From Burkholderiales bacterium (lineage in GTDB: Bacteria > Pseudomonadota > Gammaproteobacteria > Burkholderiales > SG8-39): DNA of 64,000 nt. The position numbers and the translations under genes were made by a program. Below the pieces are notes generated by a model. That model was given only the letters and a program-made list of their open reading frames with translations, was not told where the DNA came from and searched no databases. Where the stretch lies: positions 6,419 to 70,418 of the forward strand of contig JBAUTZ010000310.1 in NCBI GenBank assembly GCA_049582445.1, written 5' to 3'. This document shows, in pieces, positions 8,083-59,349 of the stretch. Each line of letters starts with the position of its first letter. Position 1 is the first letter of the stretch.

Positions 8083-8385
8083 ATGAGAGTCCTAGTGCTT
8101 TTCGCGGGGGTAGTGTGCGCTGCGCCGATCGTTGCGGACGCGGCAGACCAGACAACCGCCCGCAACCTCGCCGCAACCTGCGCCAACTGCCACGGCACCG
8201 ACGGCCGCAGTGTGACCGAGGCGGTTGCGCCGTTGGCCGGGAAGCCAAAGGACGAGATCGTCAAGCTGATGCAGGCGTTCAAGACTGGCAAGAAGCCCGC
8301 CACGGTCATGCACCAGATCTCGAAGGGCTACACAGATCAACAGATTGAACTTGTTGCCGGCTATTTGGCCGGACAGCCGAAGTGA
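8083..8385 (+). CDS. fccA: Monoheme c-type cytochrome, likely the cytochrome subunit of flavocytochrome c sulfide dehydrogenase
   Basis: It has a signal peptide, a single CANCH heme-binding motif and a distal Met (VMHQ). Its stop overlaps the flavoprotein gene start (GTGA). Strong GGAGGAGGAG RBS. Confidence 0.75.
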   Translation: MRVLVLFAGVVCAAPIVADAADQTTARNLAATCANCHGTDGRSVTEAVAPLAGKPKDEIVKLMQAFKTGKKPATVMHQISKGYTDQQIELVAGYLAGQPK

Positions 8386-37277: not shown

Positions 37278-38171
37278 CTAGTCGCCCTCGTGTTCCACGC
37301 GAAAGCGCAGCGTGTGCTCCCCGTGCTCGTTCGCGCTGTGCCCGAGCCCGATCCAGCCGCGCTCCCCGAGCACCGCCTCCTCCCGGCGCAGCATGATCTC
37401 CGCAGCTCCACCGTCGGGCAACAGGAAGGTCCCGTTGGAGGACTGGTCCGCGAGCAGGAAATGCCCGCCGCGCGCCACGATGCGGGCGTGAAAGCGCGAA
37501 GCGTAGTTGCTCTTCACCACCAGGTCGTTCGCCTTGTCGCGCCCCAGCCTGAGCGCCGCAGGGCGGTGCAGGACCGCCGTCGCGTCGCCGCCGTACGTCA
37601 GCTTCAGGACACGCTCACCCTGGCGCGGCCGCAGGACGTTCGCCAGGGTGAGATCGGGATCCGCGCGCCAAAGCACCTCGTAGGCGGTGACCTCCTCCAG
37701 CCTGCCCTTGACCCGGATCGGAAACAGCCTACGGCAGCGCTCCCGCAACGCGGGCTCGAGAGCCCCGCACGTCGGCTCGTTGGTCAGCACTTGCTCCGAA
37801 TTGGCGAGCGACGCGAGCCGCGCGCAGACGTTTACCGTGTCGCCGAACACGTCGCCATCCGCGAGAACCACCGGCCCGTAGGTAAACGCGATCTTGATGG
37901 TCAGCCTGTGCGGGCGATGGCGATCATGCGCCGCCACCGCCTCCTGCATGTCGCAGGCGACCCGCGCTGCGGCGCTGGCGTCGGCGAACATGCAGACGAT
38001 GCCATCGCCCAGGCTCTTGACCACCGTGCCCGCCTGGCGCACCACGACTTCGCCCAGGCGCCGCAGCAGCGGGTCGATCACCGCCAAGGCCTGCGCGTCG
38101 CCGAGCGATTCGTAGATTCTGGTGCTATCGGTAACGTCGGCAAAAAGTATCGCGCGCTCGACCTTCTCCAC
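37278..38171 (-). CDS. Class III adenylyl cyclase domain fused to a C-terminal FHA domain
   Basis: The cyclase motifs are FADVTDST, KSLGDG and GDTVNVCARL, with K...D specificity residues. The FHA motifs are LGR...SRFHA...NGTF. The start is set at GTG 38171, with a GGGAAGG RBS. Confidence 0.8.
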   Translation of the reverse strand: MEKVERAILFADVTDSTRIYESLGDAQALAVIDPLLRRLGEVVVRQAGTVVKSLGDGIVCMFADASAAARVACDMQEAVAAHDRHRPHRLTIKIAFTYGPVVLADGDVFGDTVNVCARLASLANSEQVLTNEPTCGALEPALRERCRRLFPIRVKGRLEEVTAYEVLWRADPDLTLANVLRPRQGERVLKLTYGGDATAVLHRPAALRLGRDKANDLVVKSNYASRFHARIVARGGHFLLADQSSNGTFLLPDGGAAEIMLRREEAVLGERGWIGLGHSANEHGEHTLRFRVEHEGD

Positions 38172-38236
38172 GCCGCCTTCCCGCTTGTGGCAAAGGCGCG
38201 ATTTTAGTCCACCCTCCGCGCGCGAGCCTGACTCGG

Positions 38237-38821
38237 CTATACGGCCAGCGGCGGCACGAGGTCTCCCGGCGCATCGATGTCGCGGATCACGCCGGGGTCG
38301 CCACACGGGATCTTGACCAGCAAGTTCTCGTGCTGCACGAGGACTCGGCGCGCGCCCTCGTCACCCGAAAGTGCCTCCAGCTCGGCGCGAAAGCGTCCCG
38401 CGATGCCGACGGGATGGCCACGCCTGCGGCGAAAGTACGGCGCCGCGAGCAGCGCGCCCGCTTCGAGAGCTTCTCGAACGGCGGCGATCGAACTGGGGCG
38501 CACGAAGGGCATGTCGGCCAATGCGACGATGTAGCCGCGCGCCTCCCCTGCGGCGCGGACCGCACAGGCCAGGCTGGCGCCCATGCCCTCGTCCGCGTTC
38601 GCGCACACGACCACGTCGCAGCCTTCCGCCGCGAGGCTGCGCGCGCGTTCCTCGGCGCCCGGGCGCACCACGGCGACCACGCGCGAGACCTGGCTCAGCA
38701 GGTGGCGGGCCGCCTGCACCGCCATCGGGACCCCGTGCGGCAGGCGATGTTGCAGCTTGTCCGACCCGAAGCGCGAAGCAGACCCGGCCGCCAGCAGCAG
38801 GCCGACGAAGTCCTGGCTCAA
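38237..38821 (-). CDS. mocA: MobA-like nucleotidyltransferase, probable molybdenum cofactor cytidylyltransferase MocA
   Basis: GLLLAAGSASRFG is a P-loop-like motif, and ALADMPFV is present. The provisional TTG start at 38821 overlaps the xdhC stop (TTGA). Confidence 0.7.
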   Translation of the reverse strand: MSQDFVGLLLAAGSASRFGSDKLQHRLPHGVPMAVQAARHLLSQVSRVVAVVRPGAEERARSLAAEGCDVVVCANADEGMGASLACAVRAAGEARGYIVALADMPFVRPSSIAAVREALEAGALLAAPYFRRRRGHPVGIAGRFRAELEALSGDEGARRVLVQHENLLVKIPCGDPGVIRDIDAPGDLVPPLAV

Positions 38822-39834
38822 GCTTTCTGCGGCGCGACCTCGCAGGCCGACGGCGCGAAGCGGCTCCCTTCCTTCTCGGCCCAATCCGGCGCGGTGACAC
38901 CGTGGCGCACTGCCGTCATCTCGGCGAGGATAGCCACCGCGATCTCGGGCGGCGTCTTGGAGCCGATGTAGAGTCCGACCGGGCCGCGCAAACGCGCGAT
39001 CTCCGAGTCGGAAAGGTCGAACTCGCGCAGCCGCCTGCGGCGCGAATCGTTGTTCTTCTTCGAGCCGATGGCGCCGACGTAGAACGCCGCCGACTTGAGC
39101 GCCTCGAGCAACGCCATGTCGTCGAGCTTCGGATCGTGCGTCAGCGCCACTACGGCACTGTGGCCGTCAAGATTTAGACCTGCGATAACGTCATCCGGCA
39201 TGCCACGATCGAGGGCCACGCCGGCCAGGTTCCAGCCTTCTGCGTACTCCTCGCGCGGATCGACCACGGTCACGTGGTAATCGAGCATCCGCGCCATCTC
39301 TGCGAGATAGCGCGTCAGCTGCCCTGCGCCGATCAGAACAAGGCGCCAGCGCGGGCCATGCACGGTCGTAAGCGCCTTGCCGTCGTACTCCAGCACGTCC
39401 TGCCAGCCGCCTGGCTCGAGCGTAACGCGGCCGGAATCCATCTCCAGGCGCCGGCGCACCAGCTGCTGCTTGCCGATCGTGTCGAGCAGTTGCCCGATCG
39501 CGCTGGCGTCACCCACCGGCTCTAGCACGACCTGCAGCGTCCCGCCGCAGGGCAGGCCCCAGCGGGTCGCTTCCTCGTTCGTCACTCCGTAGGTCAGCTC
39601 CTGCGGCCGCGTCGCAGCGACCGCCCTGGCTCTCACCTTCTCCACCAGATCGTCCTCGACACAGCCCCCAGACACCGAGCCGGATATCTGGCCGTCGTCC
39701 CGCACGGCGACCAGGGCACCCACCGGACGCGGCGCCGAGCCCCAGGTCTTCACGATGGTCCCGAGAGTCACCCCGTGGCCCGCCTTGCGCCAGGCCTCGG
39801 CGCTTCGCAACACCTCGATGTCTACGCTGTCCAT
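38818..39834 (-). CDS. xdhC: XdhC/CoxI-family molybdoenzyme maturation (sulfuration/insertion) factor
   Basis: The N-terminal XdhC_CoxI region has GSAPRPVGALVAV...GSVSGGCVE. A C-terminal Rossmann-like domain (LVLIGAG) follows. ATG at 39834 has a GGAGG RBS. Confidence 0.8.
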   Translation of the reverse strand: MDSVDIEVLRSAEAWRKAGHGVTLGTIVKTWGSAPRPVGALVAVRDDGQISGSVSGGCVEDDLVEKVRARAVAATRPQELTYGVTNEEATRWGLPCGGTLQVVLEPVGDASAIGQLLDTIGKQQLVRRRLEMDSGRVTLEPGGWQDVLEYDGKALTTVHGPRWRLVLIGAGQLTRYLAEMARMLDYHVTVVDPREEYAEGWNLAGVALDRGMPDDVIAGLNLDGHSAVVALTHDPKLDDMALLEALKSAAFYVGAIGSKKNNDSRRRRLREFDLSDSEIARLRGPVGLYIGSKTPPEIAVAILAEMTAVRHGVTAPDWAEKEGSRFAPSACEVAPQKA

Positions 39835-39874
39835 GCATGCCTCCAATCCGGGGCTATGGCGCTATTTTATTCCC

Positions 39875-41263
39875 TTATGCGGACAGGACCGGAAAAATCA
39901 AGGTCACTCTGCAGCCCTTTCCCGTGGTCGCCGGCTCGCCGATCTCGAGGCTGGCGCCATGCGATGCGGCGATCTCGCCTACGATCGCCAGCCCCAGCCC
40001 GCTGCCCGTGCCGAGGGTTCCCGGAACGCGGTAGAACCGCTGCAGCACGTGCGCGCGCTCTTCGGGCGGAATGCCTGGCCCGTCATCCTCGACCTCGAGG
40101 ATGGCCTGCGGACGACCCTCGGCCGCGCGCGTGCCCGTGCGCACCGTGACGTGGCCCCCGGACGGGGTGTACTCGAGCGCGTTGTGCACCAGGTTCGCGA
40201 GCGCCTCGCGCAACAGAAACTCGTTGCCCCGCGCGCGCGCCTCGCCGAGTTCGAAGCCCAGATCGATGTCCCGCGCCAAGGCGCGGTGAACCCACTCGTC
40301 GGCTACACCCTCGACGATGCGCCTGATATCGAGCGTCTGCATCCCTGCTTCGGGATTCCCTCCGGGCTCCGCGCGCGCCAGCGCGAGCAGCTGATTCGCA
40401 AGCCGCGCGGTCCTTATAGTCGCCAAGTGCACCTGCTCGAGCTCGGTGCGGCACCCCTCTGGTACCGGCTGTGCGAGGGCAAGCTCGGTATGCGCTTGCA
40501 GTCCGGCAAGCGGCGTGCGCAACTGGTGCGCCGCGTTGGCCAGGAACCGCTGCTGGTTGTTGTTCGCTTCCGCCACCCGCCCGAAGAGGTCGTTCAGCGC
40601 GCCAACGAGCGGTTTCGCTTCCTCGGGTGCGTGTTCGACTTCGATCGGCCGCAGGTCCCGCGGCGAGCGTTCCTTGATCTGCTCGGAGAGCCGGGCGAGC
40701 GGCGTCAGCCCGCGCTTTACGCCGAACCACACGATCACCAGTGTGGCGACCGCGATCAGCAAGGTCGGCACCAGGCTGGAAAGCACGATGTCGCGCACGA
40801 GGCGCCTGCGCTTGACGGTGGTCTCGGCGACCTGGACGGTGCATACCTTTCCCTCGCAGGGGACGAGCACGCCAACCACCCGCACGGGGCGGTCCATGTA
40901 ACGGTCGTCATAGGCAATGACGCCTTCCTTGGGCACGGCCTTCGGAGGCGGTGGCGCCAGACCCGGATCCCCCCCTACGGGCGTGCCGTCCGGCGCCAGC
41001 ACGCGGAAGTAGATCTGGTCGCGGCGGTCGGTGCGCAGCACCCGCTCAGCCGCAACGGGCAAGTCCAGAGCGTAGACACCATTTTCCAGCCGGATGCGCT
41101 CGCCGAGCGCCAGGCCGATATCGATCAGGGCTTGGTCATAAGCCGCCCTGGCAGGGCCAATTACCGGGTAGTAAGCGATCACTGCGCCCGCGGCCAAGAG
41201 CGCAGAGATCGGCGGCAGCAGCCGCCGCAGCAGTTGAACTCGAAGACTTCGGCCGGTGGTCAC
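39875..41263 (-). CDS. Sensor histidine kinase with a TctE/QseC-like periplasmic N-terminal domain
   Basis: The start is set at GTG 41263, 1 nt after the response-regulator stop. There are two TM segments, the H-box NAAHQLRTPL, the G1 motif DDGPGIP and the G2 motif GSGLGLAIV. Confidence 0.85.
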   Translation of the reverse strand: MTTGRSLRVQLLRRLLPPISALLAAGAVIAYYPVIGPARAAYDQALIDIGLALGERIRLENGVYALDLPVAAERVLRTDRRDQIYFRVLAPDGTPVGGDPGLAPPPPKAVPKEGVIAYDDRYMDRPVRVVGVLVPCEGKVCTVQVAETTVKRRRLVRDIVLSSLVPTLLIAVATLVIVWFGVKRGLTPLARLSEQIKERSPRDLRPIEVEHAPEEAKPLVGALNDLFGRVAEANNNQQRFLANAAHQLRTPLAGLQAHTELALAQPVPEGCRTELEQVHLATIRTARLANQLLALARAEPGGNPEAGMQTLDIRRIVEGVADEWVHRALARDIDLGFELGEARARGNEFLLREALANLVHNALEYTPSGGHVTVRTGTRAAEGRPQAILEVEDDGPGIPPEERAHVLQRFYRVPGTLGTGSGLGLAIVGEIAASHGASLEIGEPATTGKGCRVTLIFPVLSA

Positions 41264-41264
41264 G

Positions 41265-41939
41265 TCAAGGCCCCACGAAATCCTCGAGCATGTAGCCGAA
41301 CCCGCGGACGGTCCGGACGCGGATCCCGGCGGGCTCGAGCTTCGCGCGCAGGCGCGACAGGTAGACCTCGATCGCGTTGGGCGAGAGCTCCTCGCCCCAG
41401 CTTGCGACCGCCTGGATGATCGATTCCTTCGAGACGACGCGCTCGACGTTGGCGAGCAATACCTCGAGTACTGCCCATTCGCGCGCGGCCAGGTCGAGCG
41501 GCGCACCCCCGAGGTAGGCGCGGCGCGCTACGGTATCGAGGACCAGCGGCCCGTGCACGACCTTCGGTCCAGCCTGCGACTGGCTGCGGCGAATCAGGGC
41601 ACGGACGCGTGCTGCAAGCTCGGGCATTGCGAATGGCTTGGCAACGTAGTCGTCGCCACCGATGTCTAGCCCGCGCACCCGGTCGTCGGTCGCGTCGCGC
41701 GCCGTGAGCAGCAATACCGGGACGCGGTTGGGCGCGGCGCGAAGACGGCGCAGCGCCTCGAAACCATCGATGCCAGGCAAGCCCACGTCGAGGATGACGA
41801 GGTCGAAGCGCTCCTGCTTCGCCGCGAGAACCGCCTGCTCACCGCTCCTCACGGAGTCGACCGCGTAGCCCTCCGACTCAAGGATGCGGGTCAGGCCACT
41901 GACGAGAACGGGATCATCCTCGACGATCAGGATGCGCAT
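41265..41939 (-). CDS. OmpR/PhoB-family response regulator (TctD-like), copy 1
   Basis: The REC domain has VEDD...DLVILD...LLLTA...KPF, followed by a winged-helix domain (VRGFGYML). Confidence 0.9.
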   Translation of the reverse strand: MRILIVEDDPVLVSGLTRILESEGYAVDSVRSGEQAVLAAKQERFDLVILDVGLPGIDGFEALRRLRAAPNRVPVLLLTARDATDDRVRGLDIGGDDYVAKPFAMPELAARVRALIRRSQSQAGPKVVHGPLVLDTVARRAYLGGAPLDLAAREWAVLEVLLANVERVVSKESIIQAVASWGEELSPNAIEVYLSRLRAKLEPAGIRVRTVRGFGYMLEDFVGP

Positions 41940-42008
41940 GGGGCAGGCATGGAACGGGGCGCAGCATCATAGCGCCCGCCCGCCCCGCACGCATCCGCCC
42001 CACGCGCT

Positions 42009-42764
42009 TCAGGCGGCCTTGCGGCTGGGATACTCCAGCAGCATGTAACCGAAGCCGCGAACCGTGCGAATGCGGATGCCGCCCGGTTCGAGCTTGGCCC
42101 GCAGGCGCGAAACGTAGACCTCGATCGCGTTCAGCGACAAGTCGTCGCTCACCCCCGCGACCGCCTCGATAATCGCTTCCTTCGATACCGTGCGCTCGAT
42201 GCGCTCGAGCAGCACCATCAGCACCGACCATTCGCGGGCGGCCATTTCCAGGGGCTGCCCGCTTAGCCACGCTCGCCTCGCGTTGGTGTCGAGCGTCAGC
42301 GGCCCGTGCACGATGCGCGGCCCGGTCTGTCCACGGCCGCGCCGTCCTAGTGCACGAACGCGCGCCGCCAGCTCGGGCAAGGCGAACGGCTTGGGCATAT
42401 AGTCGTCGGCGCCGAGGTCCAGTCCGCGTACCCGGTCATCGACCGCGTCGCGCGCCGTGAGGATCAGCACCGGTTGCGCGTGTCCGGCCGCGCGCATGCG
42501 CTTCAGGACCTCGAAGCCGTCGATTCCCGGCAGGCCAATGTCCAGCACCATCAGGTCGAAACGCTCGGCGGAAATGCGGCCGAGAGCCTCCTCACCGTTG
42601 CCCGTGGCGGCCACCTCGTAGCCCTGGTTGACGAGCGCGCGCGACAATCCTGCGGCGAGCGACGCGTCATCCTCCACGAGCAGCAGGCGCACTGGCGCGG
42701 GACCTTGGGGAGAGGGCGGCACGCCAGACGCTTCAGGGGCATGATTGACCTGCGCATGATTCAT
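42009..42764 (-). CDS. OmpR/PhoB-family response regulator, copy 2 (paralogue of copy 1 with a 27-aa N-terminal extension)
   Basis: It has the same architecture as copy 1. My hand alignment gives about 145/219 identical residues. GAGGAG RBS 6 nt before the ATG. Confidence 0.9.
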   Translation of the reverse strand: MNHAQVNHAPEASGVPPSPQGPAPVRLLLVEDDASLAAGLSRALVNQGYEVAATGNGEEALGRISAERFDLMVLDIGLPGIDGFEVLKRMRAAGHAQPVLILTARDAVDDRVRGLDLGADDYMPKPFALPELAARVRALGRRGRGQTGPRIVHGPLTLDTNARRAWLSGQPLEMAAREWSVLMVLLERIERTVSKEAIIEAVAGVSDDLSLNAIEVYVSRLRAKLEPGGIRIRTVRGFGYMLLEYPSRKAA

Positions 42765-42784
42765 TTTCGGCTCCTCGTTAGTTT

Positions 42785-42803
42785 GCGGTAGGCCGCGGTA
42801 GGC
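42785..42803. repeat. Tandem direct repeat GCGGTAGGC-c-GCGGTAGGC (10-nt period) just upstream of response regulator copy 2
   Basis: Read directly from the sequence at 42785..42793 and 42795..42803. Confidence 0.6.
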
Positions 42804-43037
42804 GGATTGCGCAAGGCTAGCTTCGGCGCCTTACCCCTTGCTTAAACAAGTCTTGCAGTAACCTTGCGACAGGATTCCCGCGATTTCTTTTCTGCGGTGC
42901 AACATTGCCCACGCTTATGGGCTTCGCTACGATAGGCGCGCAAATCACGCGATCGCCAAGCCCGTAGCCACGGTTCCACTTCAAACGGGCGCCGGCGCGG
43001 TACATCCAGCCACAAGAACCGTCCCGAAGGAGGCAAT

Positions 43038-43517
43038 ATGGCAGTGAAGATTTCCATGAAGGTCAACGGCAAGCCCGTCTCGGCCGAGGTCGAGGCGCGC
43101 ACGCTGCTGGTGACGTTCATCCGCGAACACCTCAGACTCACCGGCACGCACGTGGGTTGCGACACCGCCCAGTGCGGCGCCTGCACCGTTCACATGAACG
43201 GCAAGGCGGTGAAGTCGTGCTCGATGCTGGCGATGCAGGCCGAGGGCGCCGAGATCGTGACCATCGAAGGCGTGGCCAAGGCCGATGGCACATTGCATCC
43301 GATGCAGGCCGCGTTCAAGGAGCACCACGGTTTGCAGTGCGGCTTCTGCACGCCGGGCATGGTGATGAACGCGATCGACTACGCCGGCAAGCACCCGGGC
43401 GCGAGCGAGCAGGAAGTGCGCGAGAGCCTCGAGGGCAATCTGTGCCGCTGCACCGGCTACCACAATATCGTCAAGGCGATCATGGCCGGTTCCAAGACCA
43501 TGGCCGCGTCCAAGTAA
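43038..43517 (+). CDS. coxS: Molybdenum hydroxylase small subunit, 2x[2Fe-2S] (CoxS-like)
   Basis: The cysteine clusters are [12 protein letters not shown]...SC and CGFCTPG...CRCTGY. GAAGGAGG RBS. Confidence 0.9.
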
Positions 43518-43529
43518 GGAGGACATGCC

Positions 43530-45890
<2,361 letters not shown>

Positions 45891-45910
45891 GAAGGAAAAA
45901 GGAGAACACC

Positions 45911-46708
45911 ATGCACGCATTCGAATACCATCGCCCCTCGTCGCTCGCCGACGCGTCCAAGCTGGCGACCAAGGGCGCCGACACCAAGCTTCTGGCCGGC
46001 GGCCAGAGCCTGGTGCAGACAATGAAGCTGCGCCTGTCCGCGCCGAGCGACCTCGTAGACCTGAACGCGATCGGCGAGCTGCGCGGCATCAAGTCCGACG
46101 GCAAGACGGTCACCATTGGTGCGATGACGCGCCACGCCGAGGTCGCGGCCTCCGCGGACGTGAAGAAGGCGATCCCCGCCCTCGCCGCGCTCGCCAGCAT
46201 GATCGGCGACCGGCAGGTGCGCCACCAGGGAACGATCGGCGGCTCGCTCGCCAACAACGACCCCGCCGCCGACTACCCGGCCGCGGTCCTCGGCCTCGGC
46301 GCCACGGTAGTGACCAACAAGCGCAGGATCGAGGCAGACAAGTTCTTCAAGGGCATGTTTGAGACCGCCCTCGAGGGCGGCGAGATCATCACGCAAGTCT
46401 CCTTCCCCGTGCCGAAGCGCGCCGCGTACACGAAATTCAAGAACCCGGCCTCGCGCTTTGCCATCGTCGGCGTGTTCGTCGCCGACACCGGCAGCGGCGT
46501 GCGGGTGGCCATCACCGGCGCGGGTCCGAGCGTATTCCGCCAGGGCGACATGGAGAAGGCGCTGTCGGCCAAGTTCGACTCCGCATCCGTCGCCAGCGTC
46601 AAGCAGAAGGCCGATGGCCTGAACAGCGACCTGCACGCGAGCGCGGAGTATCGGGCTCACCTCGTCACGGTCATGGCGAAGCGCGCGGTGGAGGCGGCAC
46701 TGAAATAG
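45911..46708 (+). CDS. coxM: Molybdenum hydroxylase medium FAD-binding subunit (CoxM-like)
   Basis: LLAGGQSL and GTIGGSLANNDPAADY are FAD_binding_5 motifs. The ATG at 45911 follows AAGGAAAAAGGAGAA. Confidence 0.9.
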   Translation: MHAFEYHRPSSLADASKLATKGADTKLLAGGQSLVQTMKLRLSAPSDLVDLNAIGELRGIKSDGKTVTIGAMTRHAEVAASADVKKAIPALAALASMIGDRQVRHQGTIGGSLANNDPAADYPAAVLGLGATVVTNKRRIEADKFFKGMFETALEGGEIITQVSFPVPKRAAYTKFKNPASRFAIVGVFVADTGSGVRVAITGAGPSVFRQGDMEKALSAKFDSASVASVKQKADGLNSDLHASAEYRAHLVTVMAKRAVEAALK

Positions 46709-46730
46709 CCGTGCCGCGAGCCCCTTCCAA

Positions 46731-46760
46731 CGGCCCGCCCCTGGCGGGCCGTTTCTTTTT
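46731..46760 (+). terminator. Rho-independent terminator after coxM
   Basis: CGGCCCGCC-cct-GGCGGGCCG followed by TTTCTTTTT, with a TACAAT hexamer immediately after at 46761..46766. Confidence 0.75.
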
Positions 46761-46790
46761 TACAATGTGAGTTTTGTAGGTCTCCCCGCC

Positions 46791-47702
46791 ATGCCTCGCC
46801 CCCTGCCGAAATCGATCGACGAAACCCAGCACCTGCTCACCTCGGCCGATTACGTCGCCGACCGCAGCCTCGCCACCGCTCTGTTCCTGGCGCTCGCCAT
46901 GCGGCGCCCCCTGTTCCTCGAGGGCGAGGCCGGAGTCGGCAAGACCGAGATCGCCAAGGTTATCGCCGAAGCGCTCGGCCGCGAGCTGATCCGGCTGCAA
47001 TGCTACGAGGGTTTGGACATCGCGCAGGCGGCCTACGAGTGGAACTACTCGCGCCAGATGATCGAAATCCGCCTGGCGGAGGCGGCAGGCGAAAAGTCCA
47101 AGGAAAAGATCTCCCAGGACATCTTCAACGAGCGCTTCCTGGTCAAGCGTCCCCTGGCGCGGGCCCTCGAGGGTAAGCCCGGCAGTGCGCCGGTGCTGCT
47201 GATCGACGAGCTCGACCGCACCGACGAGCCCTTCGAGGCGTACCTGCTCGAGGTGCTCTCCGACTGGCAGATCTCGATTCCCGAGATCGGTACCCTGCGT
47301 GCCATCGAGCCGCCCATCGTGGTCATCACCTCGAACCGAACGCGCGAGATCCACGATGCGGTAAAGCGGCGCTGCTTCTACCACTGGGTCGATTACCCTG
47401 ACGCAGCGCGCGAGCTTGAGATCCTCAAGCGCAAGGCACCGAAGGCGGCCGAGGCATTGTCCAGGGAAGTCGTCGCGTTCGTGCAGCGCCTGCGCAGCGT
47501 CGAGCTGTTCAAACTGCCGGGCGTCGCCGAGACCATCGACTGGGTCAACTGCCTGGTGGCGCTCGACCGCATCGCGCTCGATCCCGAGACCGTGAACAAC
47601 ACGCTCGGCGTGCTGCTCAAGTACCAGGACGACATCGAAAAGATTGCCGGCGAAGAGGCGACGCGCCTGGTCGCGGACGCGAAGGCGGCGGCCGCCGCCT
47701 GA
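46791..47702 (+). CDS. coxD: MoxR-type AAA+ ATPase (CoxD-like)
   Basis: GEAGVGKT is the Walker A motif and LLIDELDR is the Walker B motif. ATG 46791 is preferred over the track's GTG 46767. Confidence 0.85.
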   Translation: MPRPLPKSIDETQHLLTSADYVADRSLATALFLALAMRRPLFLEGEAGVGKTEIAKVIAEALGRELIRLQCYEGLDIAQAAYEWNYSRQMIEIRLAEAAGEKSKEKISQDIFNERFLVKRPLARALEGKPGSAPVLLIDELDRTDEPFEAYLLEVLSDWQISIPEIGTLRAIEPPIVVITSNRTREIHDAVKRRCFYHWVDYPDAARELEILKRKAPKAAEALSREVVAFVQRLRSVELFKLPGVAETIDWVNCLVALDRIALDPETVNNTLGVLLKYQDDIEKIAGEEATRLVADAKAAAAA

Positions 47703-47709
47703 TCGAACG

Positions 47710-49002
47710 ATGCGCCTGCCAACCCTGCTCGGGCGGCTGTTCGGCGCGGGGCCCGGGCCAGCCGAGCGCGTCACGCGCAGGACCGAAGCATTGTGCCGTG
47801 CATTGCTCTCGGAGCGCGGCGAGGCCGCCGGCACCGCGCTCGCCCGCCAGGCGCTGGATGCCTACCAGTCGCTCGATGAGGAAGGCCGCGCGCGCCTGTT
47901 CGATGCTCTCGCACGTGAGTTCTCGCCGGACCCCGAGCGCGCCGCCAAGGCGGCAGAGGCCTACCGCCGCGACCCGTCTGCGGCGAACCAGGTACGCTTG
48001 CAGGCCGCCGTCGAGCCGCCGCGCCAGGAGCTGTTCCGGCGCCTGAACATGGCGCCGGGCGGCACCGCCGGGCTGGTCGCCCTGCGCCGGCAGCTGCTGA
48101 ACGAGCTGCCACGACACCCGGAATGGACTGCGCTCGACGCCGATCTCGCGCACCTGCTGCGTTCCTGGTTCAACCGCGGGTTTCTCGTGCTCGAGCGCAT
48201 CGACTGGCGAAGCTCTGCGATCGTGCTGGAGAAGCTCATCCAGTACGAGGCGGTGCACGCGATCAAGGGCTGGCCTGACCTTCACCGGCGACTTGAGGCG
48301 GACCGGCGCTGCTTTGCGTTCTTTCATCCCGCGCTACCCGACGAGCCGCTGATCTTCATCGAAGTGGCTCTGACGAGCAAGATGGCGAGCCGGGTGGAGC
48401 CCCTGCTCGACGTCTCGGCGCCGCTCGGGGATCCGCGCCGGGCGCGCTGCGCGATGTTTTATTCCATCACCAACTGCCAGGACGGATTGCGCGGCATCTC
48501 GTTCGGGAGCTTCCTGATCAAGCAGGTCGCGGAGGAGCTTCGGCGCGAGCTCCCCCAGCTGCGCACGTTCGCCACGCTGTCGCCGATCCCGGGATTTCGC
48601 CGCTGGCTCAAGGACCGCAAGGTCGCGGGGCTGGACCTGCTGGAGGAGCCCGAGTGGCCGCAGGCGAAGAAACCCGATCCGCTCGAAAAGCTGCTGATGC
48701 CGCTGTGCGCGGAATATCTGCTCGGCGCAAAGCGCGGCACGGAGCCGCTTGACCCGGTGGCGCGCTTTCATCTTGGCAACGGCGCGCGCCTGGAGCGCAT
48801 CAATTGGCTCGCCGACACCTCGCCGTCGGGGATCGAGAGCTCGGCGGGAATGATGGCGAACTACGTCTACCGGCTCGACGAGGTGGAGCACAACCACGAG
48901 CTGTTCGTGAACGAACACCGCGTCATCGCGTCGCGCCAGGTGGAACACCTGGCGCGCGAGCGCGCTCCCGCGCAGCGTCCGCGCACCGCGGTGCAGGCCT
49001 GA
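47710..49002 (+). CDS. Malonyl-CoA decarboxylase (MCD/MatA family)
   Basis: MFYSITNCQDGLRGISFGSFLIKQV...TFATLSPIPGFRRWL closely parallels the MLYCD catalytic-domain motif FYSIS.TQ.GL.G..LG.FLIK.V...SLSPIPGF.KWL. Confidence 0.85.
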   Translation: MRLPTLLGRLFGAGPGPAERVTRRTEALCRALLSERGEAAGTALARQALDAYQSLDEEGRARLFDALAREFSPDPERAAKAAEAYRRDPSAANQVRLQAAVEPPRQELFRRLNMAPGGTAGLVALRRQLLNELPRHPEWTALDADLAHLLRSWFNRGFLVLERIDWRSSAIVLEKLIQYEAVHAIKGWPDLHRRLEADRRCFAFFHPALPDEPLIFIEVALTSKMASRVEPLLDVSAPLGDPRRARCAMFYSITNCQDGLRGISFGSFLIKQVAEELRRELPQLRTFATLSPIPGFRRWLKDRKVAGLDLLEEPEWPQAKKPDPLEKLLMPLCAEYLLGAKRGTEPLDPVARFHLGNGARLERINWLADTSPSGIESSAGMMANYVYRLDEVEHNHELFVNEHRVIASRQVEHLARERAPAQRPRTAVQA

Positions 49003-49003
49003 G

Positions 49004-50224
49004 ATGTTTCCGGGACTTGACACCGACACGCGCGGCGCCGGCCGGCTCGCGCAGAACGTCATGCACTTCGCGCGACTGCTGCGCGCAGCGGGACTGCGCA
49101 TCGGCCCGGACCGTGTGATCGATTGCGTCCGCGCACTGGAGATCGCGGGCGCATCACGGCGCGAAGACTGGTACTGGACCATGTCGAGCGTGCTGCTCTC
49201 GCGCGAGGAGCAGCGCCCGATCTTCGACCAGGCGTTCCGCATTTTCTGGCGTGATCCAAAGCTCGTCGAGAAGATGATGCAGATGCTCCTGCCCAAGACG
49301 TACGGCCGCGCCGGCAAGGACGAAGAGCAACAGGCGCAGCGGCTCACCGATGCGCTGTTCGGCCAGAAGAAGCCCGAGCCGCGCGAGCAGCAGGAGCAGC
49401 GCATCGAGCTCGACGCAAAACTCACGTTCTCCGCGCGCGAAGTGCTGCAGCGCCTGGACTTCGACACCATGTCCGCGGCGGAGCTTGCCGAGGCGAAGAA
49501 GATGATCGCGGCGCTTCGGCTGCCGCTTCCCCAGATCCGCACGCGCCGGCTGGCGCGCAGCCAGCGCGGACGCCGAGTCGACCTGCGGGCGACACTGCGC
49601 GAGAGCCTGCGCGAGGGAGCGGACGTAATCCCGCTGGTGCGCGCGGCGCCAAAGCAGGTGCATCCGCCTCTCGTGGTGCTGTGCGACATCTCCGGCTCCA
49701 TGAATCCCTACTCGCGAATGTTCCTGCATTTCCTGCACGCGATCACCAACGACCGTGACCGGGTGTCGGTGTTCGTGTTCGGCACCCGGCTTACCAACAT
49801 CACGCGCCAGCTTCGACATCGCGACGTCGACGTCGCGATGGCCAAGGTCGCCGACGCGATCAAGGACTGGTCCGGCGGCACGCGGATCGGTGCCTGCTTG
49901 CGAGAGTTCAACTGGCGCTGGAGCCGGCGCGTGCTTGGCCAGAACGCGTGCGTGCTTCTGGTCTCCGACGGCCTGGATCGCGAGGCGGGCGAAGGCCTGA
50001 ACGAGGAAATGGAGCGGCTTGCGAAATCGTGCCGCTATCTCGTTTGGCTCAACCCGCTGCTGCGCTACGAACGCTTCGAGGCGCGACCCGCGGGGGTGCG
50101 CGCCATGCTGCCGCACGTCGACTTGTTCCTGCCGGTGCATAATCTCAAAAGCCTGCTGGACCTCGCCCGTACCATAAGCGGCCCAATGACACGTACCAAT
50201 CAGGAGAACCGCGCATGGAAATGA
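49004..50224 (+). CDS. coxE: VWA-domain protein (CoxE-like)
   Basis: VVLCDISGSM is the MIDAS DxSxS motif. The family partners with the MoxR ATPase. The ATG lies 1 nt after the MCD stop. Confidence 0.85.
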   Translation: MFPGLDTDTRGAGRLAQNVMHFARLLRAAGLRIGPDRVIDCVRALEIAGASRREDWYWTMSSVLLSREEQRPIFDQAFRIFWRDPKLVEKMMQMLLPKTYGRAGKDEEQQAQRLTDALFGQKKPEPREQQEQRIELDAKLTFSAREVLQRLDFDTMSAAELAEAKKMIAALRLPLPQIRTRRLARSQRGRRVDLRATLRESLREGADVIPLVRAAPKQVHPPLVVLCDISGSMNPYSRMFLHFLHAITNDRDRVSVFVFGTRLTNITRQLRHRDVDVAMAKVADAIKDWSGGTRIGACLREFNWRWSRRVLGQNACVLLVSDGLDREAGEGLNEEMERLAKSCRYLVWLNPLLRYERFEARPAGVRAMLPHVDLFLPVHNLKSLLDLARTISGPMTRTNQENRAWK

Positions 50225-50814
50225 CCGGCGAGCAGCTGATCCCTGCTTCACAGCAGGAGACGTGGAACGCGCTCAATGACCCCGAGATTCTCAAGGCCTG
50301 CGTACCCGGCTGCGAATCGATCGAGCCGATCGGCGAGAACGAGTACCAGGTGCTGATGGTCGCGCGGGTCGGACCCGTGAGCGCCAAGTTCAAGGGCAAG
50401 CTCTCGCTTTCGGACCTGAACCCGCCCAATTCCTACTCGATCGCCTTCGAAGGTCAGGGCGGCGCTGCGGGCTTCGGCAAGGGCGGCGCGCAGGTGAGCC
50501 TCGCGCAGGAGGCCGACGGTACCCGCCTGAGCTATGCGGTCAAGGCGAGCGTCGGCGGGAAGCTGGCACAAATCGGTTCGCGTCTGGTCGACGCGGCGGC
50601 GCGCAAGATCTCCGAAGACTTCTTCAAGGCGTTCACCGAGAAGGTCGCAGCCCTGCATGGGGGTCACGGCCACGAGGAGGCGCATGCCGAGCACGGCCCC
50701 GAGCCGGTGCCTGTCGACCCCGACATGCCCACCGTATCGGACGCCACCGTCGCCCTCATCGCGGCCGGCGCGCTGATCGCGGTTTTCGTCACGTTGTACG
50801 TGCTCTACGGATGA
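50215..50814 (+). CDS. coxG: SRPBCC/CoxG-family protein with a His/Glu-rich linker and a C-terminal TM anchor
   Basis: The CoxG-like core has VSAKFKGK...GGAAGFGKG. The tail is HGGHGHEEAHAEHG followed by ALIAAGALIAVFVTLYVLYG. An alternative ATG at 50221 forms an ATGA overlap with coxE. Confidence 0.8.
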   Translation: MEMTGEQLIPASQQETWNALNDPEILKACVPGCESIEPIGENEYQVLMVARVGPVSAKFKGKLSLSDLNPPNSYSIAFEGQGGAAGFGKGGAQVSLAQEADGTRLSYAVKASVGGKLAQIGSRLVDAAARKISEDFFKAFTEKVAALHGGHGHEEAHAEHGPEPVPVDPDMPTVSDATVALIAAGALIAVFVTLYVLYG

Positions 50815-51521
50815 GCGTGCTGCTGTTTCGCGATGATCCCTACCTCAAGGCCTGCGAGGCGACGGTCGTGGCCACGCGCGGCGATGCGCTCGAGCTAGAT
50901 CGCACGGTGTTCTTTCCCGCCGGTGGAGGCCAGCCGGGTGATCGCGGAGTGCTGCGTTGCGACGACGGCACCGAGTTCGAGGTCATCGATACGCGTAAGG
51001 GCGAACTGGCCGATCATGTGCTGCATGTACTCCCGGCGGGCAGCGCGCCACCCGCGGTCGGCTCGAAGCTCCGGGCGGAGCTCGAATGGGACCTGCGCCA
51101 TCGCCACATGCGATTTCATACCGCGCTTCACCTGCTGTGCGCGGTGGTCAAGGCGCCCGTCACGGGTGGCCGCATCGCCGCAGACAAGGCGCATCTCGAC
51201 TTCGATATCGACATGGAAAAACTGGATAAAGAAGCTATCGAAGCCGCGCTCAATGGCTTGGTCGGCGCCGCGCACGGTACGAGCGCGCGCTGGGTGAGCG
51301 ACACCGAGCTAGATGCGCGACCCGATCTCGTCAGAACGATGTCGGTCGCACCGCCGCGCGGCGAAGGGCGCGTGCGTCTGATCGAAATCCCCGGCGTCGA
51401 CCTGCAGGCCTGTGGCGGAACTCACGTCGCCAACACGAGCGAGATTGGCCGGCTGAAGGTCGCGCGAATTCGCTCGGAAGGAAAGCACAACAAGCGGGTC
51501 ACTATTGCATTCGCGCAATAG
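50811..51521 (+). CDS. AlaX-type alanyl-tRNA editing domain protein (COG2872)
   Basis: HTALHLL and CGGTH are the zinc motifs of the AlaRS second additional/editing domain. The junction with coxG is an ATGA overlap. Confidence 0.8.
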   Translation: MSVLLFRDDPYLKACEATVVATRGDALELDRTVFFPAGGGQPGDRGVLRCDDGTEFEVIDTRKGELADHVLHVLPAGSAPPAVGSKLRAELEWDLRHRHMRFHTALHLLCAVVKAPVTGGRIAADKAHLDFDIDMEKLDKEAIEAALNGLVGAAHGTSARWVSDTELDARPDLVRTMSVAPPRGEGRVRLIEIPGVDLQACGGTHVANTSEIGRLKVARIRSEGKHNKRVTIAFAQ

Positions 51522-51661: not shown

Positions 51662-52291
51662 ATGGGAGACATGGCAATGTCCGCGTTGAGGAAGCGCGAG
51701 CGCGTCGCGACGGAACGGCGCGAGGCGGTCATCCTGTTCGCCGAGCTGCGCAACTTCACTCGCGTGTCCGAAATGCTCCCGCCGGAAAAGGTGCTGGCCC
51801 TCGCCAGCCAGTTCTTCGCTCTCGTCGCCACGGCAGTCGAGGAGAACGGGGGCGAGTTGCTCGCCGTGCACAACGACGAGCAGATGGCGATGTTTCGCAG
51901 CGGAGACATGGGCGAGGATGCGCGGCGGGCCGTCCTGGCGGCGCAGCGGGTTCAGCGTGAGTTCGGTACGCTCGCCGAGACATGGGAGCAGGAATACGGC
52001 CTGCGCGCCGCGGTAGCCATGGGCCTGCACCTAGGCGAAGCGGTGTTCGGAATGGCGGGCCCGACGGGAGCAGAACAATACGTCGCGTTCGGTGACTGCG
52101 TCAGCATCGCCGAGAGGCTGGTTCACCGCGCTCGTGCAGGCGAGTTCGTCTTCTCGCAGGCGCTGATGGACGCGCTATCCGCCTCGGGTATGGAGATCGA
52201 CGCGTCGAAACTTCCCGTCCTCGATCTGGCGCGACGCGAACGAATCGAAATCTACGGCGTCCTGCTCGACACGCGGCTCGATTTCACCTGA
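51662..52291 (+). CDS. Stand-alone class III nucleotide cyclase homology domain with divergent catalytic residues
   Basis: By-eye alignment gives FAELRNFT (metal Asp replaced by Glu), HNDEQMAMF (second Asp kept, specificity Lys absent) and GDCVSIAERL (Asn replaced by Ser, Arg kept). Confidence 0.7.
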   Translation: MGDMAMSALRKRERVATERREAVILFAELRNFTRVSEMLPPEKVLALASQFFALVATAVEENGGELLAVHNDEQMAMFRSGDMGEDARRAVLAAQRVQREFGTLAETWEQEYGLRAAVAMGLHLGEAVFGMAGPTGAEQYVAFGDCVSIAERLVHRARAGEFVFSQALMDALSASGMEIDASKLPVLDLARRERIEIYGVLLDTRLDFT

Positions 52292-55723: not shown

Positions 55724-56320
55724 ATGACGGATATGGAACAGCTCGTGGTGGGGCTGGTGTCGATCAGCGACCGAGCCTCGACGGGCGTCTACCAGGACGA
55801 GGGTCTGCCCGCGCTCAGGGACTGGCTCGCCGGCGCGATCGCATCGCCCGCCTTGCGCGACGAGACACGGCTGATCGCGGACGAGCAGCCGGTCATCGAG
55901 GCGACGCTGAAAGAGCTGGTCGACCGGAAGGGCTGTCACCTCGTGCTAACCACCGGCGGCACCGGGCCCGCGAAGCGCGACGTCACGCCGGAGGCGACGC
56001 TCGCGGTAGCGGACAAGGTGATGCCCGGCTTCGGCGAGCAGATGCGTCAGATCAGCCTGCAGTTCGTGCCGACCGCGATCCTTTCCCGGCAGGTCGCGGT
56101 GATCCGGAAGCAGGCGTTGATCATCAACTTGCCGGGGCAGCCCAAGTCGATCAAGGAGACGCTCGAAGGACTCAAGGACGACGCGGGAAGGCAGATCGTC
56201 CATGGCATCTTCGCGGCGGTGCCCTATTGCATCGACCTGATCGGCGGACCTTATATCGAGACCCGCGAAGCGGTCGTAAAGGCATTTCGCCCAAAGTCCG
56301 CCGTCCGCCCCAAGCCCTGA
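55724..56320 (+). CDS. mogA: Molybdopterin adenylyltransferase MogA
   Basis: It is near-colinear with E. coli MogA (GLVSISDRAS.GVYQD, LVLTTGGTGPA.RDVTP, GFGEQMRQISL.FVPTAILSRQ). Confidence 0.9.
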   Translation: MTDMEQLVVGLVSISDRASTGVYQDEGLPALRDWLAGAIASPALRDETRLIADEQPVIEATLKELVDRKGCHLVLTTGGTGPAKRDVTPEATLAVADKVMPGFGEQMRQISLQFVPTAILSRQVAVIRKQALIINLPGQPKSIKETLEGLKDDAGRQIVHGIFAAVPYCIDLIGGPYIETREAVVKAFRPKSAVRPKP

Positions 56321-57996: not shown

Positions 57997-58095
57997 CTCC
58001 CTACTCCTTTAACGCGGATGATACGCGCCCACGCGCCGCCTCATTGCCTAAGGCGATGGCGCTTGGCACAATGCAACTAGGCGCCTCACTTGTCC

Positions 58096-59349
58096 ATGCA
58101 CTTCCTCATCGTCGACGAGTCTCCCGAGCTCCGCACCGCGCTCGGCATCATGCTGTGCACACGCTGGCTGGACGCGGACATCGACCTGTACGATCCCTCC
58201 GAGCGCGACGCACTGCGCGCGTCCCTCGCCAAAGGCGGGATCTCCGCGTTGCTGCTGCAGGCGCCGTTCCCCGGCGAGGACGTGGTGGCGCTGGTCCGCT
58301 CGATCTGCAAAGACCCGAAGGCGCCGCCGGTGCTTCTGCTCACCGACAAAGGCAGCGAAGAACTGGCGGTGCGCGGGATGAAGGCGGGAGCGACGGATTT
58401 CCTGCCGCGGCAGGGCCTCACCGCCCCGCTGTTGGGCCGCCTGGTCGAGGATGCGCTGCAGGAGCATGACGCTCATATGCGGATCGCGGCGGAAACGACG
58501 GTGCACCAGAAGGCCACTACCGTGCCCATGGACACCAACACGCTTCGCGCCGCCGCGCGCGGCGGCGAGCAGCCGGTGGCCGGCTACCGAATTCTCGGCC
58601 AGATCGGCGAAGGTGGCATGTCGCGCGTTTACCTCGCCGAGCGCGAACACGATGGGCTCGAGCTGGTGCTCAAGCTGCTCGACCCCGCGTTGTGGGAGGA
58701 CAAGACCTTCCTGCAGCGCTTCGTGCAGGAGTACAAGATCGTCGCGGGCATGCAGAATGAGTATGTCGCGCGTATCTACGACCAGGGATTCGCGGCCAGG
58801 CACCCGTTCATTGCGATGGAGTACTTCCCGGGCGGACACCTCAGGGCCAAAATGCAGGCCGGAATCTCGCCCGTTGAAGCGGCTCGCATCACCTCGCAGA
58901 TTGCCCGCGCGCTCGATGCAATCCACGGCCACAACATCGTGCACCGTGACCTCAAGCCGCAGAACATCCTGTTCCGCGCGGACGGACGTCCCGCAATCGT
59001 CGATTTCGGATTGGCCAAGGACCTTCTGGCGGACGCCGACCTGACGCGCGAAGGCGTGGTGTTCGCCACGGCGCGATACATGAGCCCGGAGCAGTGCCTG
59101 AGGCTGCCGGTCGACGCGCGTTCTGATCTTTACAGCCTGGGAGCGGTCTTCTACGAGATGCTGACCGGCAAGAAGCTGTACGAGGAGTACTCCGACGCCG
59201 ACCTCATGCGGATGCACGTCTCCGGGCCACTGCCCAAGCTTCCTCCCGCGATCGCCGGCTTCCAGCCCGTGCTCGACCGCTTGCTCGCCAAGAGACCCGA
59301 GCACCGATACCAGAGCGCGCGGGAGCTGTTCGCCGTCATCGCCGTATGA
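58096..59349 (+). CDS. Pseudo-receiver (REC-like) domain fused to a Hanks-type Ser/Thr protein kinase
   Basis: The kinase motifs are [26 protein letters not shown] and SPEQ. The N-terminal REC-like fold has Gln (58258..58260) where the phospho-acceptor Asp is expected, and Arg in place of the conserved Lys. Confidence 0.85.

Follow-up and report, generated by a model that had tools for sequence, protein, structure and literature searches.

A form-II CoxL-type molybdo-flavoenzyme locus with a malonyl-CoA decarboxylase gene embedded among its accessory genes in a Burkholderiales bacterium

Gene content of the cox locus

We analysed a stretch of 64,000 nucleotides from the metagenome-assembled genome of an uncultured soil bacterium of the Burkholderiales (NCBI GenBank assembly GCA_049582445.1, contig JBAUTZ010000310.1, positions 6,419 to 70,418 of the forward strand), referred to as the window in the following, which harbors at positions 38237-51521 a locus for a three-subunit molybdo-flavoenzyme of the CoxL type, its accessory genes and, embedded among the latter, mcd, a gene for a malonyl-coenzyme A (malonyl-CoA) decarboxylase. 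The genes were checked by means of an open reading frame (ORF) listing and profile searches (Pfam, NCBIfam), and all of those named in an initial annotation of the sequence were recovered where it had placed them and with the expected domains. For comparison we used 80 species-representative genome loci, whose genes were mapped by tblastn and 49 of which are informative for mcd at the species level, as well as a metagenome set of the 80 closest Mcd homologues (61-97% identity), which were found with Mcd as the query; individual loci are identified by L numbers. Since the same gene order recurs on about 100 independent contigs, we conclude that the arrangement is no assembly artefact. The coxS-coxL-coxM order is universal among the 80 genome loci, and coxD-coxE-coxG follows next in most of them (tblastn). 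The genes of the cluster are:

43038-43517 (+): coxS, small subunit with two [2Fe-2S] clusters (PF01799 and PF00111)
43530-45890 (+): coxL, form-II molybdopterin subunit (PF01315/PF02738/PF20256; motifs AYRGAGR, SQNPH and GCGEAG)
45912-46708 (+): coxM, medium subunit binding flavin adenine dinucleotide (FAD) (PF00941 and PF03450; ATG at 45912 with AGGAG upstream)
46791-47702 (+): coxD, MoxR-class AAA+ ATPase (PF07728, PF00004; ATG start)
47710-49002 (+): mcd, MatA-type malonyl-CoA decarboxylase, between coxD and coxE (PF05292, 331 bits; PF17408, 93 bits)
49004-50224 (+): coxE, VWA protein, partner of CoxD (PF05762, 241 bits; MIDAS motif DISGS)
50215-50814 (+): coxG, accessory protein with an SRPBCC fold (PF06240, 121 bits)
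50811-51521 (+): alaX, free-standing alanyl-tRNA editing domain of the AlaX-M type (PF07973 and PF01411)
38818-39846 (-): xdhC, XdhC/CoxI-type chaperone for insertion and sulfuration of the molybdenum cofactor (Moco) (PF02625 and PF13478)
38237-38821 (-): mocA, Moco cytidylyltransferase-like protein (MobA-like NTP transferase; PF12804, 120 bits)

Indeed, the genes from coxD onwards are as tightly packed as had been described, with gaps of 7 nt between coxD and mcd and of 1 nt between mcd and coxE, and with overlaps of 10 nt between coxE and coxG and of 4 nt (ATGA) between coxG and alaX.

CoxL belongs to the form-II group

The separate subunits for the two [2Fe-2S] clusters, the FAD and the molybdopterin (Pfam) give the enzyme the three-subunit architecture of the xanthine oxidase family. 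The active-site loop AYRGAGR is encoded exactly at 44634-44654, in place of AYRCSFR. It aligns to the AYRCSFR loop of form I (1N5W, CoxL of pHCG3) with a Gly replacing the Cys that acts as the Cu ligand, and it is identical to YRGAGRPE of the S. tokodaii xanthine-oxidase-family oxidoreductase 4ZOH in a residue-level alignment. The motifs with the catalytic Gln (SQNPH) and Glu (GCGEAG) are invariant among the form-II orthologues compared and align with residues that we take to be Gln240 and Glu763 of O. carboxidovorans CoxL.

CoxL reached 700.5 bits with TIGR02416, the NCBIfam model for the large subunit of aerobic carbon monoxide dehydrogenase (CODH), as well as 688 bits with the model for the alpha subunit of archaeal glyceraldehyde dehydrogenase; both values lie below the respective cutoffs of 991.15 and 790, and the protein is therefore a curated member of neither family. 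The closest solved structures were the form-I CODHs 8UEM (641 bits) and 1N5W (582 bits), followed by quinoline 2-oxidoreductase (Qor, 484 bits), the ketone dehydrogenase Kdh (436 bits), S. tokodaii 4ZOH (376 bits), 4-hydroxybenzoyl-CoA reductase (268 bits) and xanthine dehydrogenase (175 bits). In a small neighbour-joining tree without bootstrap, which was built from annotated orthologues of cultured bacteria and O. carboxidovorans pHCG3 with PaoC as the outgroup, the CoxL of the window falls inside the form-II group, to which form I (O. carboxidovorans, 42% identity) is the sister; identity to PaoC is 26%. Within form II, identities amount to 74% for Ralstonia solanacearum, 74-75% for Caballeronia and Herbaspirillum, 68% for Azospirillum, 62% for Ruegeria and 60% for Sinorhizobium meliloti, and the active-site loop is invariant in all form-II orthologues of cultured bacteria that were compared.

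The loop and the grouping with recognised form-II sequences support the initial assignment as a form-II CoxL-type three-subunit molybdo-flavoenzyme. As had been stated as well, the sequence does not allow the substrate to be deduced, and neither the NCBIfam models nor the search of solved structures nor the tree placed CoxL with an enzyme of known substrate. Two other parts of the initial annotation have to be revised. The S-L-M gene order had been regarded as a departure from the canonical one, and it does differ from the coxM-coxS-coxL order of form I, as present on pHCG3. However, S-L-M is also found in Ralstonia, Azospirillum, S. meliloti and Ruegeria and is actually diagnostic for form II; coxSLM with coxDEGI of Cupriavidus metallidurans CH34 was called form II based on this order and on AYRGAGR (PMC2864759). 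Moreover, what had been presented as an uncharacterised module belongs to a well-known and widely annotated family.

The accessory genes form a standard set

The full set of accessory genes that had been proposed is present, i.e. those for XdhC, MocA, CoxD, CoxE and CoxG. The maximal ORF of mocA extends over 38237-38884 (-), with a likely TTG start at 38821 that overlaps the stop of xdhC; its best NCBIfam match is TIGR03310 (MocA) with 91 bits, below the cutoff of 186. In most Burkholderiales relatives represented by metagenome-assembled genomes, xdhC, with or without mocA, is located upstream of the cluster and in divergent orientation; in Burkholderiaceae (Ralstonia, Caballeronia) it is located downstream of coxG. 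The coxD gene is syntenic with the gene for the MoxR ATPase that comes after coxM in Ralstonia and Azospirillum and after coxL in O. carboxidovorans. Domains, the DISGS motif, linkage to coxSLM and synteny with pHCG3, Ralstonia and Azospirillum together identify CoxD and CoxE as a MoxR-VWA pair. An identity of the two proteins with MadB and MadC, which are their best NCBIfam matches, was dropped, as the scores are far below the cutoffs (258 vs 475 and 67 vs 600, respectively), and a literature search found no description of a system of a MadB AAA-type ATPase and a MadC VWA protein.

The maturation kit had been called unusually composed. What we find is a standard kit into which two genes, mcd and alaX, have been inserted, and since neither of these is a maturation gene, the kit itself is not unusual.

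A conserved malonyl-CoA decarboxylase gene between coxD and coxE

Mcd is full length with MCD_N and MCD domains and matches the R. palustris malonyl-CoA decarboxylase structure 4KSA with 400 bits. Of the 49 informative genome loci, 18 have the gene between coxD and coxE; in L029 it is linked in the different order coxM-mcd-coxD, and in L037 it is cut at a contig end. Around the 80 closest metagenome homologues, 61 copies are flanked by both coxD and coxE, another 17 have the correct gene at the only flank that is visible, and two differ, including the copy of L138 (63% identity), which is located among ychF, pth and the gene for ribosomal protein L25. Across genome and metagenome loci, the neighbourhood of mcd is thus conserved.

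An intact mcd is found in 99 of 101 loci. The sole copy of the 101 with an in-frame stop (L130, 4206-5435) may represent a pseudogene or a sequencing error. The core motifs FYSITNCQ and ARFHLGNGA show a conservation of 98% or more across 62 copies. The mean p-distance of Mcd (0.28) is about twice as high as those of CoxD (0.14) and CoxE (0.17), and its pairwise distances correlate with those of the two neighbours (Spearman 0.53 and 0.59 for CoxD and CoxE, respectively, vs 0.68 between CoxD and CoxE), which fits co-inheritance from one old insertion. Judged by these comparisons, purifying selection acts on an intact mcd that is inherited together with the adjacent genes, and the encoded protein is, by prediction, a catalytically intact MatA-type malonyl-CoA decarboxylase.

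The context of a malonate-utilisation operon, which is present around the alphaproteobacterial homologues, is not found for the mcd of the window: matB, matC and a malonate regulator were searched across all 64 kb, and none was found. The nearest relatives of Mcd from cultured bacteria (47-55% identity) are encoded in ordinary operons, either GntR-matA-matB or with a CoA-transferase and a carrier, which renders the cox-embedded context distinctive, and the copies on plasmids or secondary replicons of the cultured organisms checked also belong to ordinary mat operons. A literature search found no report that links mcd with a cox cluster. A second, independent neighbourhood of a molybdenum hydroxylase and mcd was observed on the Rhizobium ruizarguesonis plasmid pRlX4 (L164, 1-10268), where paoABC-xdhC-mocA lies directly beside GntR-matA(mcd)-matB-matC; none was seen in Sinorhizobium, Bosea, Pseudosulfitobacter or Pseudoroseomonas, and the adjacency on pRlX4 is probably coincidental.

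In the outgroups Ralstonia, Caballeronia, Herbaspirillum and Azospirillum, coxD directly adjoins coxE without mcd, and on the CoxL tree the loci with and without mcd are interleaved. Close sisters of mcd-carrying loci show clean coxD-coxE junctions of 34-121 nt (L028 and L008 beside L015, L034 beside L023). Elsewhere the same junction is occupied by other genes, namely an Amidohydro_2 gene in L011 (14102-14935) and L027 (7086-7922), a gene for a TctC-family receptor in L054 (14380-15441) and an Ldh_2 gene on the opposite strand in L061 (4350-5594). The junction therefore seems to be a recurrent insertion site, and from the clean loss in sister lineages and the unrelated genes at the same position we conclude that mcd is most likely a long-retained passenger.

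The second inserted gene, alaX, scores 215 bits with NF040865 (cutoff 300) and encodes the Zn-binding motifs H-TAL-H (HxxxH) and C-GGT-H (CxxxH). Among the 80 genome loci it occurs in only 10, each of them with mcd, and some of the metagenome loci have it as well; it is a narrower addition at the tail end of the operon. Conservation of the neighbourhood, for which mcd and alaX had been considered together, thus extends to mcd, but only narrowly to alaX.

Transcription and regulation

The following regulatory genes and elements are located upstream of coxS and between coxM and coxD:

39875-41263 (-): sensor histidine kinase, QseC/PmrB/TctE-like, with a 2CSK_N periplasmic domain (PF08521, PF00512, PF02518)
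41265-41939 (-): RR1, OmpR-family response regulator, partner of the kinase (PF00072 and PF00486)
42009-42764 (-): RR2, second OmpR-family response regulator (PF00072 and PF00486)
42900-42933 (+): promoter-like motif of coxSLM, with a -35 element TTGCCC (42905-42910), a 17-nt spacer and a -10 element TACGAT (42928-42933)
46729-46753 (+): intrinsic terminator or attenuator between coxM and coxD (whole element up to 46762), with an 11-bp stem, 9 GC pairs and a T-run

As had been noted before, xdhC and mocA lie on the opposite strand behind a two-component system; the number of OmpR-type regulators, however, is two, and RR2 had not been mentioned. The maximal ORF of the sensor kinase spans 39875-41506 (-), and its likely start is a GTG at 41263, 2 nt past the stop of RR1. 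The kinase is linked to the cox cluster only in an inner clade, and RR2, located between RR1 and coxS, is restricted to L001, L002 and L004, the closest relatives. The best matches of RR1 are PmrA, TctD and QseB, all below the cutoff; since only generic models of the QseC/PmrB/TctE type match, and these below the cutoff, the two-component system gives no clue to the signal.

By aligning the 320 nt upstream of coxS we found the motif CAACATTGC-N-GCTTGGCTA(C/G)GAT, the window copy of which reads CAACATTGC...GCTTGGCTACGAT (42900-42933, +). When 3.9 Mb of related loci were scanned with a degenerate pattern of this motif, it matched at 29 sites, and 24 of these lie within 320 nt 5' of coxS (24 of 81 loci); the pattern was derived from the same loci as were scanned, and the positions of the other five matches were not inspected. 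The motif is present whether or not the two-component system adjoins, and we infer that it acts as a promoter. A half-palindrome GCAAnnTTGC, which overlaps the -35 element, is a possible operator. The coxS leader (42934-43037, +) is about 60 nt longer in the closest clade of the window than elsewhere (104-112 vs 39-54 nt from the end of the motif to the ATG), and a search of the leader and of the region from 36 to 54 kb against Rfam gave no match at E ≤ 1.

Downstream of coxM, the initial annotation had placed a terminator and a TACAAT hexamer in front of the second unit. The terminator is confirmed. The hexamer (46760-46765) lacks a -35 element, and a sigma-70 scan of the region from 38 to 52.5 kb called no promoter-like site, which does not support its reading as a promoter. 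Many relatives have a GC-rich hairpin with a T-run after coxM, with differing stem sequences. However, another group with mcd (16-nt spacer) lacks the terminator, as does Ralstonia, the spacers being 16-21 nt, so that the split into two units is specific to certain lineages. The hairpin may best be read as an attenuator that lowers the expression of the accessory genes. Across the genome loci (e.g. L005, L030, L038, L042, L044 and L048) the coxM-coxD spacer is highly variable, ranging from 1 nt to about 9 kb. Inserts at this position often are oppositely oriented, paralogous genes for ABC substrate-binding proteins (ABC_sub_bind, PF04392), and the spacer of L005 holds a gene for a dCache histidine kinase.

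Genomic neighbourhood

The left flank of the locus consists of housekeeping genes, i.e. a cyclase-FHA gene, glyA, nrdR, ribD and ribE, and the right flank comprises a cyclase-domain gene, dsbA and pmbA, followed by darP and mog. The right flank (cyclase gene, dsbA, pmbA) is syntenic in many relatives, and the GC content is about 0.66 across the whole window. An origin as a mobile island was rejected based on this uniform GC content, the housekeeping flanks and the synteny on the right.

The cluster is bracketed by two genes with adenylate/guanylate cyclase domains (37278-38306, -, and 51662-52291, +). The left one carries the FHA domain, and the right one follows coxG or alaX in many relatives; S. 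meliloti (L169) likewise has a cyclase-domain gene just upstream of coxS. A further Moco biosynthesis gene near the cluster is mog (molybdopterin adenylyltransferase; 55724-56320, +; NF006932, 333 bits, cutoff 158), located 4 kb downstream. Elsewhere in the window we observed a gene resembling the flavoprotein of flavocytochrome-c sulfide dehydrogenase (8382-9662, +), a fragmentary Urate_ox_N ORF resembling membrane urate oxidase (416-1057, +) and a gene for a fusion of a receiver domain and a Ser-Thr kinase (58090-59349, +).

Interpretation of the locus

Taken together, we consider it likely that the locus encodes a form-II (BMS-type) enzyme of the xanthine oxidase family together with its standard accessory genes, and that mcd and alaX are inserted, co-transcribed passengers and not part of the maturation machinery. 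From the initial interpretation we thus retain form II, the accessory set and the terminator, but not the anomaly of the gene order, the oddity of the kit, the TACAAT promoter or the uncharacterised status.

The following model draws on knowledge of the enzyme family for the catalytic steps, and its transcriptional steps are predicted. In CoxL, molybdopterin cytosine dinucleotide would carry a mononuclear Mo=S centre, without the Cu-binding Cys. A Glu-assisted attack of Mo-OH on the C-H carbon, followed by hydride transfer to the sulfido ligand of Mo=S, would hydroxylate the substrate, for which an aldehyde or a small heterocycle is the likeliest candidate, and the electrons would pass from the two [2Fe-2S] clusters of CoxS via the FAD of CoxM to a further acceptor. 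The absence of the Cys would imply that there is no Mo-S-Cu site, which makes physiological oxidation of carbon monoxide (CO) by this enzyme unlikely. MocA would provide the cytosine dinucleotide form of Moco, which XdhC would sulfurate and insert, and the MoxR AAA+ protein CoxD and the VWA protein CoxE would remodel the apo-enzyme for maturation of its active site, with CoxG as an SRPBCC accessory protein. Transcription of coxSLM would start near 42940 from the conserved sigma-70-like promoter at about 42905-42933, the terminator after coxM would lower read-through into coxD-mcd-coxE-coxG-alaX and thereby keep the helper proteins sub-stoichiometric, and the divergent two-component system probably regulates the cox locus. 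The genes mcd and alaX would have entered the accessory operon in an ancestor of an uncultured soil group of Burkholderiales and would have been carried along since.

Several points weigh against this interpretation. The expectation of an aldehyde or heterocycle instead of CO is derived from the missing Cys, and Bradyrhizobium japonicum USDA110 was reported to oxidise CO with a form-II enzyme only, according to a work cited in PMC2864759. The promoter and the attenuator are predicted, as is the control of the locus by the two-component system. Furthermore, several observations do not readily suit neutral hitch-hiking of mcd: the setting at coxD/coxE is shared by 78 of the 80 nearest Mcd homologues, which reach down to 61% identity (17 of them judged by one visible flank), 99 of the 101 copies have remained intact and their core motifs are invariant, the Mcd distances track those of CoxD and CoxE (Spearman 0.53-0.59), and L029 retains the linkage in a different position (coxM-mcd-coxD).

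These observations, together with the 18 of 49 genome loci, the tight junctions of 7 and 1 nt and the purifying selection on a co-inherited Mcd, would also be consistent with a functional integration of Mcd with Cox. Such an integration might take the form of a pathway step, in which the form-II enzyme oxidises a C3 aldehyde, e.g. malonate semialdehyde or its CoA ester, and Mcd converts the resulting malonyl-CoA into acetyl-CoA and CO2, or Mcd might be a second client of the MoxR-VWA pair, by analogy to lysine decarboxylase with RavA-ViaA or RuBisCO with CbbQ-CbbO. The lack of matB, matC and a regulator in the window, unlike in the GntR-matA-matB-matC operons of the alphaproteobacterial relatives, and the plasmid-borne paoABC-xdhC-mocA beside a mat operon in Rhizobium point in the same direction. 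However, most form-II clusters, including all cultured ones examined, do without mcd, sister lineages have lost it cleanly and retained coxD and coxE, other lineages have unrelated genes at the same junction, no enzyme that forms malonyl-CoA is linked, and the literature search gave no report connecting mcd and cox. As all loci come from one bacterial group, the conservation of mcd may also reflect operon inertia. We therefore regard a functional integration as unlikely, and it appears rather improbable that a MatA-type Mcd was recruited into the form-II cox system, be it as a downstream step or as a second client of CoxD/CoxE.

With regard to the enzyme itself, a genuine aerobic CODH, if one of low activity, as claimed for the form II of B. 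japonicum, on which strain USDA110 reportedly relies (cited in PMC2864759), would agree with the form-I CODHs being the closest solved structures and with an accessory set (coxD/E/G and XdhC) that is the same as in O. carboxidovorans. We nevertheless consider it very unlikely, since a Gly replaces the Cys of AYRCSFR that serves as Cu ligand and the score of 700 bits falls short of the curated form-I cutoff of 991. The AYRGAGR loop is common to hydroxylases other than CODH, as seen in the alignment with 4ZOH and in a 2026 survey, according to which form-II CO activity is not yet settled and which kept only form-I sequences as true aerobic CODHs (PMC13240472). Moreover, the coxSLM product of Rubrivivax gelatinosus, described as a "putative mononuclear molybdenum CODH" with no known function, is made constitutively without CO, reduces nitroblue tetrazolium and co-purifies with the XdhC-like CoxI (PMC10434068). 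A bacterial equivalent of the glyceraldehyde (aldehyde) oxidoreductase of archaea, the NCBIfam models of which are the best or second-best match for all three subunits (alpha 688, beta 236 and gamma 230 bits) and with which the loop identity to 4ZOH would be in line, is a doubtful alternative as well, since all three scores fall below the curated cutoffs (790, 350 and 290), CoxL matches form-I CODH, Qor and Kdh better than 4ZOH, and no genes of a sugar-acid pathway are linked in the window. An enzyme of form II with standard accessory genes and two passengers thus remains the preferred interpretation.

Soil and marine Proteobacteria very commonly carry form-II CoxL genes, which are routinely annotated as "carbon-monoxide dehydrogenase", and the question of their substrate has been open since the mid-2000s. 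The core locus accordingly belongs to a known and widely conserved family with an already well-known substrate question. Annotation of form II as CODH inflates estimates of the potential for CO oxidation. Form-II CoxL proteins form a tight orthologous group with 60-86% identity across Alpha- and Betaproteobacteria and an invariant active-site loop, and this conservation, together with the core-genome site between housekeeping genes, suggests one common conserved substrate. The conservation of a cox-embedded mcd in uncultured soil Burkholderiales adds a modest new observation to comparative genomics and offers a lead that can be tested. If mcd were indeed recruited, its linkage would offer, for the first time, a genomic hint at the substrate of the form-II "CO dehydrogenase" and would point to malonate semialdehyde and related C3 aldehydes as candidates; if the lead proved negative, the locus would represent a clear case of long-term hitch-hiking by unrelated genes in an operon.

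Comparison with known systems

Form-II clusters are known from C. metallidurans CH34 (Rmet_0365-0359), the R. solanacearum megaplasmid, Azospirillum lipoferum and R. gelatinosus ("pCOD"). The locus of the window resembles these coxSLM-coxDEG(I) clusters in the AYRGAGR loop, the S-L-M order and the presence of the MoxR ATPase, the VWA protein, CoxG and XdhC, with 60-74% CoxL identity, and its layout of coxSLM, MoxR, VWA, CoxG and XdhC matches those of cultured Ralstonia and Azospirillum and of coxSLM-coxDEGI of C. metallidurans (PMC2864759). It differs from other form-II clusters in having mcd between coxD and coxE and alaX after coxG, in the position of xdhC and mocA, which are found upstream, beyond a two-component system and on the opposite strand, and, e.g. 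from Ralstonia, in the terminator between coxM and coxD.

With the form-I CODHs of O. (Afipia) carboxidovorans (1N5W) and Mycobacterium smegmatis (8UEM), the closest structures at 582-641 bits, the enzyme shares the three subunits and the same accessory families (CoxD, CoxE, CoxF/I and CoxG). In contrast, the identity of CoxL is only 42%, form I has AYRCSFR with the Cu-binding Cys, extra loop residues and the M-S-L order, and the CoxL of the window fails TIGR02416. The archaeal glyceraldehyde oxidoreductase (NF041018-20), of which we take S. tokodaii 4ZOH to be a structural relative, has in common with it the YRGAGRPE loop, a mononuclear Mo centre and high scores for all three subunits; yet the subunits of the window stay below the three cutoffs, and the structural match is more distant than that to form-I CODH.

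Finally, Mcd resembles rhizobial MatA and the bacterial malonyl-CoA decarboxylases 4KSA, 4KSF and 4KS9 in its complete MCD_N and MCD domains, in 47-55% identity and in the conserved motifs FYSI(S/T)N and FHLGNGA. Unlike the MatA gene of matABC operons, however, the mcd of the window is not located beside genes for a malonyl-CoA synthetase, a carrier or a GntR regulator, but is embedded between those for a MoxR ATPase and a VWA protein.

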